From the sequence record PQ356295.1: 64,000 nt of DNA; one strand, written 5' to 3'. The position numbers and the translations under genes were made by a program. Below the pieces are notes generated by a model. It ran no database searches and was not told where the DNA came from. It saw only the letters and a list, made by a program, of their open reading frames with translations. This document shows positions 13,626 through 53,615 of this stretch, piece by piece. How positions within the stretch are numbered: the stretch's first letter is position 1; every line of letters starts with the position of its first letter. The stretch comes from Escherichia phage KKE7M.

Positions 13626-13874
13626 TTACCATCGAATAACTATTCGAGTAAAGTTTTCATCGTAGTGGGATGTTTCTGTATCAATAAAAGTTGAAAAACC
13701 TTCAGCATCCAAGCTAACTTTTACAAAAGTTGGATAAAGCGTGTAGATAGCAACTTCTCTGTCCCCGTCTTTAGCTGCTCTCTCAATATACGCGTAGATA
13801 TTTTGTAAACTCTCCTTTGCTTTGTTAAGTTCTGCGTTTTCTGCCAGTTCTCTCATTTTATCTGCTACAGTCAT
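13626..13874 (-). CDS. hypothetical protein (82 aa)
   Basis: ATGA overlap with upstream gene; AAAGGATA upstream. Confidence 0.55.
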   Translation of the reverse strand: MTVADKMRELAENAELNKAKESLQNIYAYIERAAKDGDREVAIYTLYPTFVKVSLDAEGFSTFIDTETSHYDENFTRIVIRW

Positions 13875-14134
13875 TTGTCAGTATCCTTTTCAATAAAGCC
13901 TGTGGTTTTACAAGGTACACATTCATACATTTGTCCAACATCTGCAACCACCCAACCCATTCCACTGCAATAAGGACATATTGTTTTGTTCTCTTTAGCA
14001 TACACAGCCAGAAGTCTTTCTTCTAGCTTATTGTAATCAGCAAGAAGAACATAATCCCCTTCTGGATCTGGTACAATATCACATTGACCAGCAGCACCTT
14101 GGCTGTACACCTCTAAACCATATCGTGTAACCAT
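13871..14134 (-). CDS. hypothetical Cys-containing protein (about 87 aa)
   Basis: Start trimmed to ATG with GGAGTGGGAATA upstream; CPYC...CVPC pairs suggest a zinc ribbon. Confidence 0.55.
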   Translation of the reverse strand: MVTRYGLEVYSQGAAGQCDIVPDPEGDYVLLADYNKLEERLLAVYAKENKTICPYCSGMGWVVADVGQMYECVPCKTTGFIEKDTDK

Positions 14135-14559: not shown

Positions 14560-14802
14560 TTATTGCAGTTCAAAGATATCCCCATCTCCATCATATCCAT
14601 ACTCTAACTCTCCTGTATCATATAATACAATAAAGTCTGTATCATCTTCAATAAAAGATTTAGCATAATCTACTAACTCTTCATTATCTTCATAACCTTC
14701 CAGGTACTCAATACGACCATTGATACACTTAGCTGCAACAATTCCTGGGCCATTGCTTGGAGTCCACTCACTGTATACTCGCATCCCTAATTCTTTAATC
14801 AT
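14560..14802 (-). CDS. hypothetical protein (about 80 aa)
   Basis: Start trimmed to ATG with GAGGAGACAAACA RBS. Confidence 0.55.
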   Translation of the reverse strand: MIKELGMRVYSEWTPSNGPGIVAAKCINGRIEYLEGYEDNEELVDYAKSFIEDDTDFIVLYDTGELEYGYDGDGDIFELQ

Positions 14803-15019
14803 TGTTTGTCTCCTCATAATCAATGTAATTGTAACACTTATTCTTTAAGAAATCTTCTGCTTGTTTATTGTGTTTTAGAATGGTGCACTTCTCTATATTG
14901 TGTTCTACATTATTATGTAGCTTGTATAAGTTAGATGCACCATACAGAATACCAATTAACAAAAGCAAAAAGATTGCTGTTGATAACAAAAATTGTTGCA
15001 ACTTGTTTACAGACTTCAT
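14795..15019 (-). CDS. small membrane-anchored protein (74 aa), paralog family B
   Basis: AAGGAGGG RBS; N-terminal TM helix; C-terminal motif shared with 19514..19732. Confidence 0.55.
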   Translation of the reverse strand: MKSVNKLQQFLLSTAIFLLLLIGILYGASNLYKLHNNVEHNIEKCTILKHNKQAEDFLKNKCYNYIDYEETNND

Positions 15020-15072
15020 AAACCCTCCTTATCGTTAGTACATACTGATACTAACAAGAAGTTAAGATCGTG

Positions 15073-15246
15073 TCAACATCTTTGTGTTAATTTTATCCAC
15101 TGTTCACATTCCTCTTTTGTGTCATACTCTACAGGCTTCCCTGTATCATTTCCACAACCATCTCCGAACGTAGCCCACCAGGAGAATAGAAAACAAGTTT
15201 CTCTTACTCTCCACTTATTGGCATAGGGTACAACATAATAACTCAT
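15073..15246 (-). CDS. small Cys-rich protein, about 57 aa
   Basis: ATGA overlap with upstream stop; not in ORF track; coordinates approximate. Confidence 0.4.
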   Translation of the reverse strand: MSYYVVPYANKWRVRETCFLFSWWATFGDGCGNDTGKPVEYDTKEECEQWIKLTQRC

Positions 15247-15494
15247 AAGATTGTGATCCTTAGCTCATTTTCTAAGGTATGTCTCACACACTCTTTGAAA
15301 TTGTTATCAATATACACCACACGTACTCCATGAGGTGTGTCTTTACATTCAAACACATTATATACAGTATCAGATAAGACATGTTGTACGTTTACTTGTC
15401 CAATGCCATCTTTAACCACAACCATTACTTTCAGTAAACTTGTATGGTTTTTAACTTCATCTTCTACGTATGCTACAACATCTTTGATATTCAT
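15243..15494 (-). CDS. hypothetical protein (83 aa)
   Basis: CAGGAGAA RBS upstream. Confidence 0.6.
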   Translation of the reverse strand: MNIKDVVAYVEDEVKNHTSLLKVMVVVKDGIGQVNVQHVLSDTVYNVFECKDTPHGVRVVYIDNNFKECVRHTLENELRITIL

Positions 15495-15790
15495 GGTTTC
15501 TCCTGTTTAAGTACGATATAAGATTGACGAGATTTCCATCGCCCTATCTTAACAAGGCAAATAATGCCTCTCTTTAACAAATATTTCATATCTTCGTCAT
15601 AAGCTGTTTGCAATTGCCACTTACTGTTAACAGGAAGCGAACCATGTACCCTTAAATGAGCTAACAAATACTTTCTTCGCTCTTTTCCATAAGGCAGGTA
15701 TTGCCATTCTTTCTTTGATACAGGTTCATGTACTTTGCGATGCCAGTAAGTAAGGTGTCTTCTTTTATGTAAACCCCTATTCCTTACCAT
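15491..15790 (-). CDS. basic His-rich protein (99 aa)
   Basis: GGAGGTAGAGG RBS; highly basic, His/Arg rich. Confidence 0.55.
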   Translation of the reverse strand: MVRNRGLHKRRHLTYWHRKVHEPVSKKEWQYLPYGKERRKYLLAHLRVHGSLPVNSKWQLQTAYDEDMKYLLKRGIICLVKIGRWKSRQSYIVLKQEKP

Positions 15791-16029
15791 TATACCTCTA
15801 CCTCCGTTACCCCAGGATCTCTAGTCCAGGTGTAGTAGAGCATACCATCTTCTTTCAGTGCAATGCGATCACTTTCGTCTCGAAGATATAGGTCACAAAC
15901 CACACGCAGTTGCGGATCTGATCCTAGTAGTTCGGAAACAATAAAGTCATCACCACTCATACGAGCAACAATCACTGCATATTGACCAGTATCTTCATCA
16001 AAAATTGGTTGTCCGATGTTTAATTGCAT
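15790..16029 (-). CDS. hypothetical protein (79 aa)
   Basis: AAGGAGACAA RBS upstream. Confidence 0.6.
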   Translation of the reverse strand: MQLNIGQPIFDEDTGQYAVIVARMSGDDFIVSELLGSDPQLRVVCDLYLRDESDRIALKEDGMLYYTWTRDPGVTEVEV

Positions 16030-16077
16030 TGTGTTGTCTCCTTATTCAGTACGTTGTTTTGTGCTGCGCACCAGCAC

Positions 16078-16215
16078 TCATAAAAACCTTGGGTTAATGG
16101 CATAGTGTAGTTTCCAGAAGGATCTCTTTCGAGATCCCCCATCTGCATAACAACCACTACCTAAGAACCATTTTTCAAAATCGGATAAATCATCCCAATC
16201 TACACTATGTTTCAT
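16078..16215 (-). CDS. small protein, about 45 aa
   Basis: Internal ATG 1 nt after upstream stop; weak RBS. Confidence 0.3.
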   Translation of the reverse strand: MKHSVDWDDLSDFEKWFLGSGCYADGGSRKRSFWKLHYAINPRFL

Positions 16216-16216
16216 A

Positions 16217-16675
16217 TTATACAGTCTTATACCCGACAATAGCAACCTGATTCGTAGGCTTCCAACGACCAATAATCTCACCAGAAATCTCTGTGCTACT
16301 GTTTATGTATTGGTAATGGGTATCATCATGATTAACCCACGCCATAATGTCAAGGGTAGGGGTTTTCACGTGTACCAGTAGTGTAGCCCATTCTGGGGCT
16401 TCTTTAATATCCACAGAATCTTGCCAATCTTCTTCGATGTGCCAAGTAGGTTCACCATCAACATCTGTAACGAAGAAACGAGCTTTCATACGTTTAAAGA
16501 ACATTGGTGTATACCCATGATCGCACTCTGGGATAAAATCATCCATCGTCTCGTCATAGGTGAAATATTGTCCATCTTTGTAATGAAAAGATGCACAAAA
16601 CAGTTCATTACGAGCAGGAACATGCCATACAGCTACAAAACTACGACCATGTGGATAATGTTTAACCTCTTGCAT
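16217..16675 (-). CDS. hypothetical protein (about 152 aa)
   Basis: Start trimmed to ATG with AAGGAGAAAA RBS. Confidence 0.6.
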   Translation of the reverse strand: MQEVKHYPHGRSFVAVWHVPARNELFCASFHYKDGQYFTYDETMDDFIPECDHGYTPMFFKRMKARFFVTDVDGEPTWHIEEDWQDSVDIKEAPEWATLLVHVKTPTLDIMAWVNHDDTHYQYINSSTEISGEIIGRWKPTNQVAIVGYKTV

Positions 16676-16691
16676 AGTTTTCTCCTTATTT

Positions 16692-17036
16692 TTATTCAAA
16701 AGAATCAATTCGATTTTGTTCTATGTCAATTGCAGCATCTAGGATAAGTTTTAATGCTTCAAATTGCAAGTGTTCTTCTAAAGAGAAGACATATAAAACA
16801 ACGGATTCCAAGTAAGACAGCACCCCAAGACTAAGAGTTGCAATTTCTACTCCTGCATCGGAGAAGCCTGTTTGCAAAACTTCTTTGAAGAAACGTTGTT
16901 TATCAACAATAGCAGATAAAATAAGCGTTTTACGCTCCTCTGCTGATCGTACTGTGCAGTATATGTTGCTAAAAGAGTCCAGCCACATTTTGATCATACC
17001 TTGTCGGTACATAAGGATTTCAATATCAGCCAACAT
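16692..17036 (-). CDS. hypothetical protein (about 114 aa)
   Basis: Start trimmed to ATG with GAGGAGAAATAAT RBS. Confidence 0.55.
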   Translation of the reverse strand: MLADIEILMYRQGMIKMWLDSFSNIYCTVRSAEERKTLILSAIVDKQRFFKEVLQTGFSDAGVEIATLSLGVLSYLESVVLYVFSLEEHLQFEALKLILDAAIDIEQNRIDSFE

Positions 17037-17037
17037 A

Positions 17038-17205
17038 TTATTTCTCCTCTGGAGAGAGATTCGAATTGATTTGATAGTAAAAATCAAAATCCTTGTGTTG
17101 ATTGCACCATTCTTGAGCTTCTTTAAACGACGCAAATTGCATAGTGAATGTTGCCATCCACGTGTTCATATTTTTATTGAACTTGTCGATAAAAAATGTT
17201 TGCAT
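17038..17205 (-). CDS. small protein, about 55 aa
   Basis: GGGAGGAATA RBS before internal ATG. Confidence 0.45.
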   Translation of the reverse strand: MQTFFIDKFNKNMNTWMATFTMQFASFKEAQEWCNQHKDFDFYYQINSNLSPEEK

Positions 17206-17423
17206 TATTCCTCCCATTTTATCCAAAGGCAGTATTCTGGAACATAAACCTCTTTCCCTTTGTTATTCACAAAGGTGTACTCCACAAATTCTGCTTTATA
17301 TGTTTTGTTATATTCCTGTGCTGCTGGCACAGGACATTTTGTAATGCGCGTTTCAGTCCAACGGCGGTGTATAACCGCCTTGTTCTTTGGATCAAACGGA
17401 TGTATAAAGTGTGTTTTACTCAT
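17205..17423 (-). CDS. hypothetical protein (about 72 aa)
   Basis: Internal ATG overlapping upstream gene end by 8 nt. Confidence 0.45.
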   Translation of the reverse strand: MSKTHFIHPFDPKNKAVIHRRWTETRITKCPVPAAQEYNKTYKAEFVEYTFVNNKGKEVYVPEYCLWIKWEE

Positions 17424-17820
17424 GTGCCATTTCCACAAGATTTTTAATCATAGTTTCTCGACAGAGATTCCACATATCTGAAGCAACCATAGAGGCATAT
17501 TCATCGGGGTTGGATTCTGGTAAAATCTCTTTGACTGCTTCTGGTGTCGGATTGCACATAGCAGGTAGTGCTTTAAGTGCATCTTCAATAGAGAGCTTCT
17601 TACCTTCACTGTAAATAATCTCGTAATCATAGTCATTTACATCTTCCGAAATATCCCGATCCAGGTAACGTACAGTGGAGTTATGCATTTTGTTCATAGA
17701 TTCACTAACACCAGCACCACAAAGCTGTGCAACTTCTTTAGAGATACAGTCACAAATAACAACTTCGTAAGGCTTTCCACCATAATACTGCGCATTATAT
17801 TTGATTTTAACAGACCACAT
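17416..17820 (-). CDS. hypothetical protein (134 aa)
   Basis: AAGGAGAG RBS upstream. Confidence 0.6.
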   Translation of the reverse strand: MWSVKIKYNAQYYGGKPYEVVICDCISKEVAQLCGAGVSESMNKMHNSTVRYLDRDISEDVNDYDYEIIYSEGKKLSIEDALKALPAMCNPTPEAVKEILPESNPDEYASMVASDMWNLCRETMIKNLVEMAHE

Positions 17821-17830
17821 ATTACTCTCC

Positions 17831-18517
17831 TTATTTAACGTGTTTTAGCAATTCAATGTTAGCAGAATAGTTTTCACCACAATTAGTAACGCTCAACAGT
17901 GACCATTTACAAGAGAATACACCTTTTAGATGATCTGGAATACACATCAACGGAACATAAACTGTTTCTGAATCTTCTGTTTGCTCTGTTTTGTTAACAT
18001 TGCAACAAAATGGCAATACATCATCATGAATCATTTTACATTCACTCAAATTGTCTAACATATGTGAAACTTGTTCTGAAGTTTCAAACATTTCTGCTTC
18101 ACAAGCCAGTGCACCAACCACTTGATAAGCCTCTCCACACAAATCTTCTAGTTCTAAAATACGTTCAGACATAGTTTCGATGATTGCTGATCGTGCTTTC
18201 ACTTTAGTTTCTGCTTCTTTAATTTTATTCTCAAGTTCGGCAATGTACTTCAGTAGTGCACTAACAACATCTTGAGTATTTTCTTGATCATCTTGGGAAA
18301 TTTTTACCAAAGAAGAAGCTGCTTTGCAGCGCACTTTAGGCTCTACGTAGCCAAAAGTCATATTTTCCGAAGAAGATTGTTGTGAAAACCAGTGTTTGTT
18401 CGAAGAAAACACAGGTTCATCTTCAAACCAGAACACATCCCCAGTAATATCACGAGCCATGAAGTTTGCATTATCTGGAACTTCGTAACGATGCCCTTCA
18501 AACATAATCTCTTTCAT
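17831..18517 (-). CDS. hypothetical protein with coiled-coil segment (228 aa)
   Basis: GGAGGATG RBS upstream. Confidence 0.65.
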   Translation of the reverse strand: MKEIMFEGHRYEVPDNANFMARDITGDVFWFEDEPVFSSNKHWFSQQSSSENMTFGYVEPKVRCKAASSLVKISQDDQENTQDVVSALLKYIAELENKIKEAETKVKARSAIIETMSERILELEDLCGEAYQVVGALACEAEMFETSEQVSHMLDNLSECKMIHDDVLPFCCNVNKTEQTEDSETVYVPLMCIPDHLKGVFSCKWSLLSVTNCGENYSANIELLKHVK

Positions 18518-19101
18518 TACACATCCTCCATTTGGAACATCTCTTTGTGGTTAGAATAGATCTGTTTGAAAATCTTGTCAAGGCGTTCATATGATTCTTT
18601 ATGCTCTTGTTTCCATCCGTGATTTCGGATTTTATCTGCCAGGTCATAAACCTCGCATAAAACTTTGGCAAAGTTGGTATTATTTATAGCACAAGCCTCA
18701 AAACCTTGAACTAAACCCTCTACATCGTACCACGTATAGTCAGAGTCACTAGGAGGCTTTCCTGCATCGGCTAAACGTTGCCTTACCCATTCAATACGTT
18801 TTTCATTCAAATGGCACTTACCTTCTCTGCACTCTTGTTCTAATTCTTCTTTAGATTCATTGAATGGGTGAAGGACAGGAAGTTCTGCTTTTTGCAATTG
18901 CTCCAGGTATTCACCTACAATGCGCATAGCTTCACTGTGTGTACACTTTCTGCCTGTGTGCCAGTAACGGAAGATACTTTCTGTTAAACAGATGTTTTTA
19001 CTAAACATCGCATTGTCTTTAACATTCGATCTAGTAACCCAGTCTATATAATATACATAAAACTGCAATAATTCATAACTGCTTGGTATAATTTTACTCA
19101 T
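18517..19101 (-). CDS. hypothetical protein (194 aa), paralog family A
   Basis: AAGGAGAAG RBS; shares LLQFY ... LHPFN ... motif set with 19725..20093 and 22021..22386. Confidence 0.65.
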   Translation of the reverse strand: MSKIIPSSYELLQFYVYYIDWVTRSNVKDNAMFSKNICLTESIFRYWHTGRKCTHSEAMRIVGEYLEQLQKAELPVLHPFNESKEELEQECREGKCHLNEKRIEWVRQRLADAGKPPSDSDYTWYDVEGLVQGFEACAINNTNFAKVLCEVYDLADKIRNHGWKQEHKESYERLDKIFKQIYSNHKEMFQMEDV

Positions 19102-19110
19102 GACTTCTCC

Positions 19111-19278
19111 TTAGTTGTGCAAAATGTTATCGATCAGTATGACTAGTAGTACGAGGATAGAAGGGAGCAGGAATAGAAATCTTAACATTATGTGATGCGT
19201 GTGAGAAGCGGCTTTAGCTCCAGCCGCCAATAAGCCTACTAGTCCTACAATAAAGAGGAGTTGTTCAGGGACACCCAT
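19111..19278 (-). CDS. small membrane protein, about 55 aa
   Basis: ATG adjacent to upstream stop; hydrophobic; not in ORF track; coordinates approximate. Confidence 0.35.
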   Translation of the reverse strand: MGVPEQLLFIVGLVGLLAAGAKAASHTHHIMLRFLFLLPSILVLLVILIDNILHN

Positions 19279-19279
19279 A

Positions 19280-19504
19280 TTATGGAACACTTGGATACTC
19301 CGTAAGTTTAGCTAACAGTTGAATATGTGGACACGTAAATTGTTGTCCTGGATAGCGTGAGCTAATATCCTCCAGTAAAGCGATCACAGCATTGTGCAAT
19401 GCTTCGTAATCTTCATAATACACCATTTCTCCATTAGGATCTTCAACAATATCGCAGTGACAAGCGTGAGCAGTACACGCATCCCATTCCAGACGTTTTA
19501 CCAT
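19280..19504 (-). CDS. hypothetical Cys/His-containing protein (74 aa)
   Basis: AAGGAGGA RBS upstream. Confidence 0.55.
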   Translation of the reverse strand: MVKRLEWDACTAHACHCDIVEDPNGEMVYYEDYEALHNAVIALLEDISSRYPGQQFTCPHIQLLAKLTEYPSVP

Positions 19505-19513
19505 AAATCCTCC

Positions 19514-19732
19514 TTACTTATACATTTGATATGATACATAACGATTGCAATCAAGTGCGAGAAACTTTTCAGCATCCCTTTGATGCTTGAACACAATACA
19601 CTGTTCTTTTTTAGCTTCACTTTCACGAGCTTCTCTTGCCATATAATCACCTAAACGAACGATATTAGAGAACAATACGTATGCAAGAATAAGACAAACA
19701 GTAATTGCACAGAAAATTTTAAACTTAACCAT
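19514..19732 (-). CDS. small membrane-anchored protein (about 72 aa), paralog family B
   Basis: Start trimmed to ATG with GGAGGGATACA RBS; TM helix plus C...FKH..AE.FL...C..Y motif shared with 14795..15019. Confidence 0.5.
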   Translation of the reverse strand: MVKFKIFCAITVCLILAYVLFSNIVRLGDYMAREARESEAKKEQCIVFKHQRDAEKFLALDCNRYVSYQMYK

Positions 19733-20093
19733 TGTATCCCTCCATATCACGAATACGATCAATCACCCATTGTACACGTTCTTTGTTAAGGTGTGCAGTG
19801 CCTAGCTCTGTTTCCGTAAAGTAATGTGAGAAATCTGTATTAAATGGATGTAAATGGTTCAAACCCGCTTTCTTAAACTGTTCCTTCATTTCCTCTCGTA
19901 CAGAGGATTGGAGTTTTGATACATTTTCAACATCTTTTATCCAAGCGATGTTATATAAGAAGTCTACAAGACACGTGCAAAGACCATAGTGCTTTTTGCT
20001 AAAGTTTGTATCTTCTTGTTCCAACCACCACTCATAAAATTGTAGCAAATAGGGGCTGCTTTTCATGTTACACACTTTATTATTCTCTTGCAT
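19725..20093 (-). CDS. hypothetical protein (122 aa), paralog family A
   Basis: AAGGAGAAG RBS; LLQFYEWW ... GLCTCL ... LHPFN ... QWVIDRI motifs. Confidence 0.6.
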   Translation of the reverse strand: MQENNKVCNMKSSPYLLQFYEWWLEQEDTNFSKKHYGLCTCLVDFLYNIAWIKDVENVSKLQSSVREEMKEQFKKAGLNHLHPFNTDFSHYFTETELGTAHLNKERVQWVIDRIRDMEGYNG

Positions 20094-22020: not shown

Positions 22021-22386
22021 CTATTCAATGCAAGCATTATTTGCATCTTCGATTCTGTCTTTCACCCACTGCAATCTCTTTGGGTTGGTATGGCAAGAAT
22101 GTGTCTTACCTTCATCTTCATAACACAGAAGATCATAATTAAAGGGTAGGAAGGAGGATAGCCCAGCACACGTGAATTGCAGTTTCATCTCTTCCAGTGT
22201 TTTACTACGAACCATCTTGAAATATTCTATATCTTCTTCCGTAGGTTTTTTCTTTGACATAGTGGTTGCCAGGTAATCCATAAGGCAATTACACAAACCA
22301 ACATTCTCACGATGCATTGAGGAATGATCTTCCATCCATGCTTTGTAAAATTCTAACAGCAGAGGACTGCTAAGAGGAACACACAT
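22021..22386 (-). CDS. hypothetical protein (about 121 aa), paralog family A
   Basis: Start trimmed to ATG with AAAGGAGTC RBS; LLLEFY ... GLCNCL ... LPFN ... LQWVKDRI motifs. Confidence 0.55.
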   Translation of the reverse strand: MCVPLSSPLLLEFYKAWMEDHSSMHRENVGLCNCLMDYLATTMSKKKPTEEDIEYFKMVRSKTLEEMKLQFTCAGLSSFLPFNYDLLCYEDEGKTHSCHTNPKRLQWVKDRIEDANNACIE

Positions 22387-22747
22387 ATCAGACTCCTTTA
22401 TAAATTTACGTTTCATGCTACACATCATACAGCGTCTTTTCATCTATTACAAGAACAGCAACCTAGAAACATCATTAATAGAGGAATTAGTATAGGATTT
22501 CCCTATCAATTATTCTATATATACCTAATATTTTTAACACACCCCTTTGTACATAATATAGACAAATAAATATCTATGCCACAAAAATTTTCCGGTATAC
22601 CCGATTTATTTCGACACACCCCCTTTTCATAAGCGTAAAGCCAATAATATCAATAACTTGCCGCAAAATACTGCTCGCTTGCGAGAGGTGCTTAACGCGA
22701 TTTTTAGCGCCCCCGATTTCTGCCGACCGTCCCCCTCAAATATCAAT

Positions 22748-37348: not shown

Positions 37349-38476
37349 TTAAAACACACTTGCCAAAGTTGCACCATTGGTGATAGTTGGTTCCAGAACA
37401 ATACGGAAAGAATCTTCTGGATCATCACTAAACACAACGATTTTACCGCCTGTGATAAGATCTGCTTTCATTTTTGTCGCATTCAATGGAATTCGAGCAT
37501 CGCCTTCATCATCAAAAACCACGTAAGAGCTATTAGCAAGGGCTTCTTTAGAGTCTGCATCACTTGGAGATGACAAGTACACGTCTAGTGTGCACGAACC
37601 ACCTAAAAAGATTGCAGGTGTAAAGTTATGCCAACTAGATACCCAGCTAACTTTCTGAAGTTTTCCATTAATAACAACGCTGCTGATATCCCATTTATTA
37701 CCACCACCTAAAGAAACGCCCATCATAGAGATGCATTCTTTAAAGGATAAATCAGGGTAGAAATTAAGTTCTTCTACTATACCTTGGATCACATCAAAGG
37801 ACAACTCTAAACTTACATCCCAAAGTCTTTGGAAATTATCAAAGTGTGCTTTGTTATCCAGGTTTTTATCTAAATAGTCAATCATAGTTTCTAGTGAGAT
37901 TTTATCATAATTAAAATTATAAAACACACGACTAGGACGATTTAAAAAGAATTCAGAGATAAAACCACTGTTTTTAGTCAGAATAAACAGTTTATTACCA
38001 CTGCCAGTACCATCTAACAAAGTGAGAAGTGCTTCTTGATCTTGTTTCTTCTCATATACTTTATCAAACTCGTCAAAAATAATCACTGCTTTGTCGGTGA
38101 TCTTGCTAATAAGTTCAATGAAATTAGCATCACTGTAGGCTTGAGTAACCATAATAGTTGGAATACCTTCTTCTACAAGATCACGACTAATGAGTTTGGC
38201 TAACATAGTTTTACCACTACCCTTAGTTCCTGTCAGAAGCAAGCCTGTATTTTTACCTTGTGCACTCCGGCGATGGAATGTACGGATAACGTGATTTGCT
38301 CGTTTTTCTGTTTCACCATACAGAACATCCGGTACACCTGTTAGATTACCACGGCTTAAAAAATAATTGCCAAGGGGATCACGACTAACAGTATAGAATC
38401 CAGGTGGAAGATAGTTAGATTCCACGCCCATATCTTTATTTACACTTACAATATCACCATAAATCGTGTATTTCAT
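37349..38476 (-). CDS. AAA-family ATPase (paralog 1)
   Basis: Walker A GTKGSGKT, Walker B IIFDEFDK, downstream LLTLLDG ... LFILTKN; about 45 percent identical to 52455..53615. Confidence 0.8.
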   Translation of the reverse strand: MKYTIYGDIVSVNKDMGVESNYLPPGFYTVSRDPLGNYFLSRGNLTGVPDVLYGETEKRANHVIRTFHRRSAQGKNTGLLLTGTKGSGKTMLAKLISRDLVEEGIPTIMVTQAYSDANFIELISKITDKAVIIFDEFDKVYEKKQDQEALLTLLDGTGSGNKLFILTKNSGFISEFFLNRPSRVFYNFNYDKISLETMIDYLDKNLDNKAHFDNFQRLWDVSLELSFDVIQGIVEELNFYPDLSFKECISMMGVSLGGGNKWDISSVVINGKLQKVSWVSSWHNFTPAIFLGGSCTLDVYLSSPSDADSKEALANSSYVVFDDEGDARIPLNATKMKADLITGGKIVVFSDDPEDSFRIVLEPTITNGATLASVF

Positions 38477-52454: not shown

Positions 52455-53615
52455 ATGTTTACAGTATTCGGCAATCAAATCTTCCTGCGTCAGAAATCTG
52501 GTACAGATATTGAAGAAATTCCAGCAGGAACTTTTGGTGTAGGTGTTACTCAAAGTGGTGAGTTCTTCTTGTATCCTAAAAACGATATGGAAGTCCCTTC
52601 AGTAACATACGGTGATACTGATGATAAATCAGAACGTATTATCAAAACGTTCCTTAGCCGCAAAGGTAAAAACACAGGTGTTCTCCTTGAAGGTACGAAA
52701 GGTAGCGGTAAAACTTTGCAAGCTAAAATGCTGTCTTCTGCTCTTCGTGAAATGGGTATTCCTACTATTTCTATCGGTAGTGCTTTTAATGGTGAAGGCT
52801 TTATCAATTTTATGTCTAAAACCACACAACCTGTGATGATTATGATCGATGAATTTGATAAACTGTATGCTGAAAAAGATGCACAAGATGGTTTGCTTAC
52901 CCTGCTGGATGGTGTTGGTGGCTACGACAAACTGTTTGTATTGACTAAAAATGATGGTTATGTATCAGAATTTTTGCGTAATCGTCCTAGCCGTATTTTC
53001 TACAGTTTTAGCTATAAGAAACTACCTAAAGCTACTATGGATGATTATCTGGCTAAAAATCTGGAGAACAAAGCCTTCTTACCAGATTTTGAAACGCTTT
53101 ATAATCTCTCCGTGGATTTGAACTTTGATATTGTTCAGTCATTAGTAGAAGAACTTAACCGTTACCCTAATGACAAATTCTCTGATGCACTTGCATTGAT
53201 GGGTATCAGTATTACTGAACACCGCTATGCTGCAAAAGAGGTTAAACTTCTGAAAGTTAACGGTGTAGATCGTACAGGAGATGTTTCGGCAGATACCGAT
53301 ATTGACGGTATGACAGCACAAGGTTTGTTTAGCGGTAATCGTTATGTTGTAGCTGTAGACCATAAACTAGGTGAAGAGCATCTTCCTGAAATGGAAGGGA
53401 TCGTTACCGTAGAAGATAAAGATGAAGAAGGTGACTACTACTGGGGTGTAGACCGTATCTTGCTGACGTATGATGAAAAACACATTCGTACAATGGGTGG
53501 TGACGGTTATCACTTTATGTTCACCGATGATAAAGGTAACAACATTGAAGTTGTTATTAAAAACAAAGAACGTAAAAATTACACAGAGTATGTGTTTGGT
53601 GGTCGTTCTTACTAA
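52455..53615 (+). CDS. AAA-family ATPase (paralog 2)
   Basis: Walker A GTKGSGKT, Walker B IMIDEFDK, LLTLLDG ... LFVLTKN; paralog of 37349..38476. Confidence 0.8.
   Translation: MFTVFGNQIFLRQKSGTDIEEIPAGTFGVGVTQSGEFFLYPKNDMEVPSVTYGDTDDKSERIIKTFLSRKGKNTGVLLEGTKGSGKTLQAKMLSSALREMGIPTISIGSAFNGEGFINFMSKTTQPVMIMIDEFDKLYAEKDAQDGLLTLLDGVGGYDKLFVLTKNDGYVSEFLRNRPSRIFYSFSYKKLPKATMDDYLAKNLENKAFLPDFETLYNLSVDLNFDIVQSLVEELNRYPNDKFSDALALMGISITEHRYAAKEVKLLKVNGVDRTGDVSADTDIDGMTAQGLFSGNRYVVAVDHKLGEEHLPEMEGIVTVEDKDEEGDYYWGVDRILLTYDEKHIRTMGGDGYHFMFTDDKGNNIEVVIKNKERKNYTEYVFGGRSY

Follow-up and report, generated by a model that had tools for sequence, protein, structure and literature searches.

T4 Imm and proteins of the HK97 gp15 type are small phage products of the inner membrane that keep the genome of a second phage from entering the cell; Imm does not have the conserved two-cysteine tail described below. 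T4 RI, of ~100 aa, starts with a hydrophobic segment; its small periplasmic domain binds that of another membrane protein. The i-spanins (Rz-type) display type II inner-membrane topology, and their periplasmic domain is helical, with periplasmic cysteines that matter for function; spanins are about twice the length of the proteins considered here, have coiled-coil domains (~100 aa), are encoded in the lysis cassettes of the late region and act together with a lipoprotein, the o-spanin. T4 Spackle (gp61.3) is an early, helical periplasmic protein with an N-terminal export signal and one intramolecular disulfide, Cys29-Cys81. It blocks superinfection by binding the gp5 tail lysozyme of the incoming phage, and its mature form, freed by signal cleavage, is a soluble 75-aa multi-helix bundle (PMC7677548).

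How do two small genes of Escherichia phage KKE7M compare? The window, i.e. the whole 64,000-nt stretch of DNA analysed, belongs to a phi92-like myophage, Justusliebigvirus. Small membrane protein A (74 aa; 14795..15019, minus strand) and its paralogue B (72 aa; 19514..19732, minus strand) are both present in the ORF list and as annotated CDSs in relatives, where the first-pass annotation had placed them. Like Spackle, A and B are small, and they are encoded in the putative early array of a virulent myophage. They are predicted to be helical, and have an invariant cysteine pair and a charge bias for export. They differ from Spackle in having no sequence or profile similarity to it (PHROGs, Pfam, PDB) and no PDB fold match; in addition, the part predicted to be exported is ~45 aa, a stalk plus helix-turn-helix, and is probably still membrane-anchored. 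Imm and HK97 gp15-type proteins are also small, but no PHROG, Pfam or NCBIfam match relates them to A or B. There is no sequence relation to RI, and compared with it the anchors are stable and strongly hydrophobic and linkage to lysis genes is absent. Unlike the i-spanins, A and B belong to a series of small genes on one strand, have no lipoprotein partner and have a predicted periplasmic part of ~45 aa.

Characterised exclusion, antiholin or spanin families have no sequence or fold relation to A and B in PHROGs, Pfam, NCBIfam, PADLOC or the PDB. Pfam scans of both proteins gave nothing above curated cut-offs and at most three weak chance matches, NCBIfam gave no meaningful match, no family of the PADLOC anti-phage defence profiles matched, and neither a sequence profile search nor a Foldseek search of the PDB gave a meaningful match. 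The PHROGs scan at E ≤ 0.1 found four families in all, every one of unknown function. Matches to L-selectin (E 0.017), CD20, COX14 and SecD-TM1 were rejected as sub-threshold chance matches of a Cys-containing or hydrophobic stretch. The literature on phi92, Justusliebigvirus, Phapecoctavirus, Stephanstirmvirinae and small phage membrane proteins contains nothing on these genes, nor does a paper on EHEC Zorya, Druantia and ARMADA that mentions Bas61 and Bas62. The BASEL collection includes phi92-like and phAPEC8-like phages, and such phages are considered for therapy; nearly all of their early genes are annotated as 'hypothetical'.

Two diverged paralogues of one orphan family

A is the orthologue of phi92 gp022 (phrog_23204, E 7e-51, matched end to end) and B that of phi92 gp007 (phrog_15662, E 1.3e-37, also end to end); in another relative the corresponding annotated CDSs are bas62_0166 and bas62_0151. 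The Shine-Dalgarno sequence of A, AAGGAGG (15024..15030, minus strand), was read from the sequence, and phi92 has an annotated ribosome-binding site at this position. That of B, GGAGGG (19738..19743, minus strand), also annotated in phi92, lies inside the upstream gene, at its 3' end, and B overlaps the end of this gene, stop codon included, by 8 nt (19725..19732), an arrangement of apparent translational coupling. The 53-bp gap upstream of A contains a sigma-70-like promoter match, TTGACA-17-TAGTAT, TG-extended (15048..15076, minus strand). It represents a weak lead, a mere fit to the consensus that is no evidence of function, since promoter-like sites occur no more often than in shuffles (41 vs 42).

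The pN/pS ratios of A (0.19) and B (0.28) are both below 1 and are the two highest among the 23 genes for which the region yielded values. Both genes were found in 55 of 55 matching phi92-like records. With strong Shine-Dalgarno sequences, pN/pS below 1 and presence in every one of these records, A and B are real genes under purifying selection. The family is core to the genus. B occurs in two allelic forms that differ at the C-terminus and are linked to an insertion next to the gene.

The two proteins were proposed in the first-pass annotation to be paralogues with a shared C-terminal motif. Formal alignment, named beforehand as the place where this proposal might fail, gave a similarity far past chance: BLASTP of A against B has E 9e-8 with 39% identity across 31 aa, each protein matches the PHROG family of the other (E 3.5e-6 and 1e-5), and hhalign gives a probability of 96.8% and E 3.1e-10. 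The Smith-Waterman score is 74; shuffles average 23.8 with a maximum of 57, and none of 20,000 reached 74. The motif as originally quoted is exact, CTILKHNKQAEDFLKNKCYNYIDY vs CIVFKHQRDAEKFLALDCNRYVSY. Likeness is limited to this C-terminal module, where identity is 41%, as against 12% in the transmembrane helix and 6% in the linker. Exactly two copies are present, as neither motif scan nor family HMM found a third in the 64-kb window.

Could the similarity be a matter of chance, or the ORFs not be genes? The ORFs are very short, and the phage region around them is AT-rich and crowded with spurious ones, which might raise this suspicion, but its probability is practically nil. It is already refuted by the alignment, PHROG, hhalign and shuffle statistics, by the strong ribosome-binding sites of both genes and their pN/pS below 0.3, and by conservation across genera where synonymous sites are saturated. 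A and B are true diverged paralogues of one family.

A family profile search of 1.84 billion representatives (cut-off E ≤ 0.001) listed 21 proteins, ~19 of which are family members, and an IMG/VR scan yielded only four additional family loci. The A and B families constitute one small orphan family of phi92/phAPEC8-like (Stephanstirmvirinae-type) phages. In PHROGs, phrog_15662 and phrog_23204 are separate and unannotated; they are linked here by cross-matches and hhalign. Two orphan PHROGs that had been classified apart are thereby united in a single family, probably exported, with a sharply defined ~27-residue module that carries an invariant cysteine pair. All 46 intact members are 61-83 aa long and have a single N-terminal hydrophobic helix, and A and B fall in the family range of 60-85 aa with one such helix. 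The plan does not change between members: the hydrophobic helix at the N-terminus and the linker after it are variable in sequence, and the C-terminal module is conserved. Sampled family loci are all in arrays of small same-strand genes, and on ~150-kb phage contigs wherever the contig is long enough to tell. The module is kept in phages reported from Escherichia, Klebsiella, Salmonella and Serratia. The two copies are dispersed in phi92-like phages, as they are in ESCO13, whereas those of L010 stand in tandem; the family has duplicated repeatedly and independently. Repeated duplication, together with the two alleles of B, is what diversifying interaction modules look like.

The module, delimited by motif scan, alignment and regional conservation, spans residues 42-68 in both proteins (14816..14896 in A, 19529..19609 in B, both minus strand). 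On the same strand, Cys45 and Cys62 are encoded at 14885..14887 and 14834..14836 in A, and at 19598..19600 and 19547..19549 in B. The consensus is K-E-x-C-I-V-L-K-H-Q-K-x-A-E-K-F-L-x3-C-x-R-Y-V-x-Y, and A and B both carry the family motif E-x-C-x3-K-x4-A-x2-F-L-x3-C. The C-x16-C pair, spacing included, is invariant in 46 of 46 intact members. E43, C45, K49, A54, L58 and C62 are invariant in the family alignment and F57 nearly so (at least 90%); position 50 varies between H, Y and Q. In the 19-member non-redundant set, mean pairwise identity is 70% in the module and 25% in both helix and linker. Synonymous sites are saturated (pS 0.7-1.0) and pN is 0.16-0.45, which shows that the constraint is on the protein and rules out a conserved DNA or RNA element beneath the module. 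The module is the constrained part of these proteins.

Topology, cysteine pair and predicted fold

The single N-terminal transmembrane helix that had been proposed for each protein is borne out, the best 19-residue Kyte-Doolittle mean (KD19) being 2.41 for both. Hydropathy and charge place it at residues 7-29 in A (14933..15001, minus strand) and 6-25 in B (19658..19717, minus strand). In A the helix is predicted to be a signal-anchor or signal peptide, and a SignalP annotation is already present on phi92 gp022. Several members have AXA-type sites, e.g. AMA|K, and some have weakly hydrophobic N-terminal segments rich in Gly, Ala, Ser and Trp (KD19 1.6-1.9).

Which side of the membrane does the conserved tail face? 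By net charge, the N-terminal flank is more positive than the C-terminal flank in 45 of 46 members. K+R counts alone are ambiguous, with means of 1.2 on the N-terminal side vs 2.4 in the first 15 residues of the C-flank, and would also agree with an N-out, C-in orientation. Nine of the 46 members have no N-terminal K or R; in all nine the first charged residue past the helix is acidic. Because of the charge balance and the invariant cysteine pair, the N-in, C-out topology is favoured, with the two-cysteine tail probably facing the periplasm and Cys45 and Cys62 probably joined in a disulfide. A periplasm-facing domain with a possible disulfide had been suggested at the outset; the C-x16-C pair, the net charge and the SignalP annotation sustain it as a prediction.

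AlphaFold2 models of A (pLDDT 80, helices 3-50 and 54-59) and B (pLDDT 74, helices 2-50 and 54-59), of moderate confidence with pTM values of 0.41 and 0.32, respectively, predict one shared fold: a helix to residue 50, a turn and a helix at 54-59. A BFVD model of the gp022 type superposes on one of the gp007 type with a TM-score of 0.87-0.89, and a fold search of BFVD gave no matches outside the family itself.

The gene immediately upstream of B (19725..20093, minus strand) represents the multi-copy gp006-like family, which often adjoins the small membrane-protein family in other phages. The gp006-like protein has no signal sequence and is presumably cytoplasmic. A relation to Crl was considered from weak matches (Pfam E 0.09, NCBIfam E 0.013) and rejected, as the hhalign probability is 1.6% and Crl matched in one of 19 family members. 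Of 13 lineages, about 8 have a gp006-like gene directly next to the family gene, and the stop codon of one often overlaps the start codon of the other; this adjacency is at most suggestive of functional coupling because early regions contain 5 to 7 or more gp006-like copies.

Adjacency of this kind, the K+R excess on the C-terminal side and the nine members with no positive N-terminal charge would fit an opposite topology, in which the N-terminus is outside and the conserved charged C-terminal module is a cytoplasmic tether. In this improbable arrangement the module would hold a cytoplasmic partner at the membrane, e.g. the gp006-like protein translated along with it, and its cysteines would be either reduced or part of a metal site shared across a dimer. 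The net charge difference points to N-in, the acidic residues past the helix favour export of the flank in members that have no N-terminal K or R, and two invariant cysteines beside which no other metal ligand is conserved, the variable position 50 included, are what an exported disulfide typically shows. Moreover, the abundance of gp006-like genes makes adjacency only weakly significant, and A, L004, L010 and L011 have no gp006-like neighbour.

Putative roles at the envelope

From gene layout, the long array of small same-strand genes that includes A and B is inferred to be the early, host-takeover region; the literature search found no transcriptome of these phages. The best explanation, offered tentatively and at less than an even chance, is that A and B are inner-membrane-anchored, disulfide-stapled periplasmic binding modules that act on the envelope, e.g. 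in superinfection exclusion. The variable N-terminal helix, with its N-terminus in the cytoplasm, would serve as export and anchor signal only and continue into the periplasm as a helical stalk bearing the ~27-residue helix-turn-helix. Stapled by the Cys45-Cys62 disulfide, the latter would form the functional surface and bind a conserved envelope or periplasmic partner, either a host component or the penetration machinery of an incoming phage. Binding might then alter the infected cell's envelope, and the most plausible outcome would be a block of secondary infection such as Spackle brings about. As the copies have diverged, with under half of their module residues identical, A and B probably recognise different partners or variants. 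By analogy, superinfection exclusion or envelope modulation, the role first put forward for the pair, is plausible. Adjacency to gp006-like genes and translational coupling, however, would better fit a cytoplasmic partner.

The same architecture is compatible with modules that inhibit a conserved enterobacterial periplasmic or inner-membrane protein and are not directed at incoming phages. This reading is possible, if on the unlikely side; the target could be, for example, a protein of the machinery for the cell wall, division, transport or stress signalling, or else an anti-phage defence component bound to the membrane. Conservation of the module over phages reported from four enterobacterial genera fits a conserved host target, and the genes sit among presumed host-takeover genes, but no similarity to known inhibitor or anti-defence families was found in PHROGs, Pfam, NCBIfam or PADLOC.

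A role in lysis timing is quite unlikely. Here the periplasmic domain, whether membrane-tethered or released, would bind the periplasmic part of the phage holin or sense superinfection and so delay lysis in the manner of the antiholin RI. The general plan, shared with RI, of a short chain that begins with a hydrophobic segment and ends in a small domain in the periplasm invites the comparison, and the weakly hydrophobic N-termini of some members could leave the membrane. The window copies, however, have strongly hydrophobic anchors, there is no match to lysis-annotated PHROGs, the annotated lysozyme of ESCO13 is ~20 kb from both copies and on the other strand, and two diverged copies per genome would be unexpected for an antiholin.

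With an envelope-acting binding module as the preferred reading, the family offers a concrete candidate for an early function at the envelope. If it is an exclusion or envelope factor, this bears on the design of phage cocktails, since related phages could exclude each other, and adds a periplasmic binding scaffold that is very small and easy to engineer. If no such phenotype exists, A and B stay an ordinary orphan early gene pair.

More speculatively, and with considerable doubt, the family may represent a class of periplasmic effectors that has so far escaped notice and is confined to phi92/phAPEC8-like phages, i.e. a disulfide-stapled helix-turn-helix mini-domain atop a transmembrane stalk that would have repeatedly duplicated and diversified towards different envelope targets or competing phages. 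Its origin perhaps lies in an early three-gene module (gp006-like, membrane protein, gp008-like) that would have been duplicated in tandem in the phi92 lineage. Immediately downstream of B, gp008 (19280..19504, minus strand) is paralogous in a 32-aa N-terminal module to gp025 (13871..14134, minus strand), three genes downstream of A; the two are related by BLASTP (E 7e-7) and by reciprocal PHROG matches. The N-terminal ~115 aa of gp010 (18517..19101, minus strand) are paralogous to gp006, a possible remnant of module duplication.

Two paralogous genes in an array of small genes

Two minus-strand genes of Escherichia phage KKE7M, A (14795..15019, 74 aa) and B (19514..19732, 72 aa), had been picked out in a first-pass annotation as paralogues with one N-terminal transmembrane helix each and a shared C-terminal motif. 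Both open reading frames are as described there, each product has a single strongly hydrophobic N-terminal segment, and the motif pattern that was quoted is exact. Are the two truly related? Formal alignment, which the annotation itself had proposed as the trial of kinship, gives significant similarity (BLASTP E 9e-8). Paralogy is backed further by reciprocal PHROG matches, A to the family of B and vice versa (E 3.5e-6 and 1e-5), by profile–profile comparison (96.8% probability, E 3e-10) and by shuffling, where none of 20,000 shuffles (mean 24, maximum 57) reaches the local alignment score of 74. By motif scan and by family HMM alike, the window contains two copies and no more.

The ATG of A lies four bases past AAGGAGG and that of B five bases past GGAGGG, and B overlaps the gene before it, stop codon included, by 8 nt. 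Both genes are clearly under purifying selection, with pN/pS of 0.19 (A) and 0.28 (B) in eleven close genomes; both exceed all the others of the 23 regional genes with data, which range from 0.03 to 0.16.

The 8-kb stretch around the pair is 96–98% identical to 55 phage records, every one of which has both genes. Among them are phi92 and Escherichia phage JohannJBalmer (Bas62; 97.8% identity here), of the genus Justusliebigvirus (Stephanstirmvirinae). A is phi92 gp022 and bas62_0166, B is phi92 gp007 and bas62_0151, all annotated coding sequences. The genes are already known as hypothetical proteins in many genomes, with a SignalP signal-peptide note on gp022. They sit in a long, tightly packed array of small genes, all on the minus strand; GC skew is negative from about 10 to 22 kb of the window, and a low-GC region and a strand change follow near 22–24 kb. 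This layout suggests an early, host-takeover region; literature searches found no transcriptome for phi92-like phages. Among the neighbours, gp009 (19111..19290, minus strand), two genes downstream of B, encodes 55–59 aa that include two hydrophobic segments. Not related to the family of A and B, it has a SignalP note and the flag 'bad prodigal statistics' in the phi92 record.

The conserved module and its predicted export

Two orphan PHROGs that had been classified apart, phrog_15662 (B) and phrog_23204 (A), prove to be one family; this is new, as is the delimitation of its conserved module. Word-indexed searches with A and B at first returned close relatives only; tblastn against phage genomes then added phAPEC8-like phages, Klebsiella phages and others, each with one copy that is more distant, and a family profile search recovered 69 clusters. 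When 1.84 billion cluster representatives were scanned exhaustively with HMMER, just 21 proteins came in at E <= 0.001; some 19 of these are real members, all of 61–83 aa and of one common architecture. In every sampled context the gene lies in an array of small genes on one strand, and the contigs long enough to judge are phage contigs of roughly 140–157 kb.

Among 19 non-redundant members, mean pairwise identity is 70% in the C-terminal 27 residues and 25% in both the N-terminal helix and the linker. In these 19, E43, C45, K49, A54, L58 and C62 never vary, and F57 is invariant or nearly so. Between lineages the module has saturated synonymous sites (pS 0.7–1.0) while pN stays at 0.16–0.45, which argues that its conservation reflects selection on the protein; an embedded nucleic-acid signal is excluded by the same saturation. 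A is the most deviant member, with changes at near-invariant positions (K42I, I46T, K56D, D59K and R64N), and among sequences from outside the genus it is closest to P0073, a protein cluster from a 151-kb metagenomic phage contig.

On which side of the membrane does the module lie? In 45 of 46 intact members the segment before the helix is more positive, by net charge, than the 15 residues that follow it, and in all nine members without N-terminal Lys or Arg the first charge past the helix is acidic. During membrane insertion an acidic residue right after a helix favours export of that flank, so these nine favour export of the C-terminal side. An N-in, C-out orientation is thus predicted with fair confidence, and this evidence for export of the tail is also new. 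The opposite orientation, with a cytoplasmic partner for the tail, would accord with a simple count of Lys plus Arg, which is higher on the C-terminal side, and is a minority possibility, rather improbable. Under the predicted C-out orientation, some members may be cleaved, as they have classical AXA sites (AMA|K); A and B combine poor cleavage sites with very hydrophobic helices and more likely stay membrane-anchored. The two cysteines are invariant and no further metal ligand is conserved, as expected of a putative periplasmic disulfide.

The AlphaFold2 models of the two proteins agree (mean pLDDT 80 for A, 74 for B): a single helix extends out of the membrane segment as far as residue 50, and after a turn of three residues come a short helix (54–59) and a helical turn (62–64). 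A54, F57, L58 and C62 would share a face, with C45, I46 and K49 on the opposite one, as judged from helical periodicity, not coordinates.

Possible modes of action

By sequence and fold, A and B belong to no characterised family, since searches of Pfam, NCBIfam, PADLOC and PDB sequences gave no match of any weight, their PHROG matches are to families of unknown function only, a PDB fold search gave no match, and a BFVD fold search led back to the family and nothing else, its matches including a gp022-type model at TM-score 0.87–0.89. They fall within the broad kind of small early phage membrane proteins and are not a new kind of system. On the favoured reading the tail would be a periplasm-facing binding module, putatively stapled by a disulfide and held at the inner membrane, from where it would act on an envelope target.

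What might its role be? Superinfection exclusion, one of the roles first suggested for the pair, is the leading guess, though a tentative one even when taken jointly with the architecture. The nearest known analogue in possible mode of action is T4 Spackle; this helical protein, early and exported, has one disulfide and binds the tail lysozyme of the incoming phage (PMC7677548). That A and B inhibit some component of the host envelope or of host defence is almost equally probable. T4 Imm, HK97 gp15, the RI antiholin and i-spanins have parts of the architecture in common with A and B, but fail on sequence, size or genomic context; an antiholin-like role is a minority possibility, and quite unlikely.

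Duplication and recombination

The family has duplicated more than once, again a new observation: two copies lie 4.7 kb apart in phi92-like phages and 5.5 kb apart in ESCO13 (Phapecoctavirus), and the metagenomic phage at locus L010 has a tandem pair. B shares the phAPEC8 synteny, with a gp006-like gene directly upstream and overlapping stop and start codons, and is therefore probably at the ancestral position. In Phapecoctavirus-type genomes the second copy (ESCO13 gp034 type) stands directly upstream of a serine recombinase (relatives' loci L005, 2694-3368; L006, 2604-3278; L022, 12534-13205), annotated as a resolvase or DNA invertase and unusual among early genes of virulent phages.

The gp006-like family (phrog_2510 and phrog_27059, PHROGs without assigned function) has three minus-strand copies in the window (19725..20093, 18517..19101 and 22021..22443). 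In relatives it has multiplied strongly, to 5 to 7 or more copies per 8–15 kb (ESCO13, L022, 1466-15254; L008, 1597-4013; L007, 4368-6049; L015, 2486-9387), one instance being a fused tandem double, and about 8 of 13 lineages have it right next to the gene for the small membrane protein. Its conserved motif is LLxFYxWW..GLCxxL..EMxxQFxxAGL..PF..HxNxxRxxWV; its weak similarity to Crl, a sigma-binding protein, was tested and rejected. A 32-aa N-terminal module is common to gp008 (19280..19504, minus strand), just downstream of B, and gp025 (13871..14134, minus strand), three genes downstream of A (BLASTP E 7e-7, reciprocal PHROG matches); gp008 also weakly matches a Lar-like restriction-alleviation PHROG (E 1e-3). 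There are thus three colinear pairs of paralogues, gp006/gp010, gp007/gp022 and gp008/gp025, and their colinearity suggests that a three-gene module was duplicated in tandem long ago and later split by insertions.

The last codons of B look like a recombination junction (3' end of the gene, 19514..19560; see also phage Antha, L020, 6551-6799). Close relatives have two C-terminal alleles, ...ALDCNRYVSYQMYK and ...EQDCGRYVNYN. The ...EQDCGRYVNYN allele (69 aa) accompanies an adjacent insertion of about 285 bp, which carries an extra 82-aa open reading frame between gp007 and gp008. The same tail also sits on a quite different N-terminal helix in protein clusters P0065 and P0067, which points to recombination at the 3' end of B.

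Upstream in B, GCTAAAAAAGAACAG contains an A6 run (about 19608..19613, minus strand), and three metagenome-derived clusters, P0032–P0034, are frameshifted exactly there, after ...EAKK, with loss of the conserved module; P0031 breaks further on, at ...QRD. These breaks are most likely assembly or sequencing errors, slippage being a less likely source. The window holds a further pair of paralogues, on opposite strands (52455..53615, plus; 37349..38476, minus), whose products of roughly 375–385 aa are 46% identical over 254 aa (E 6e-79).
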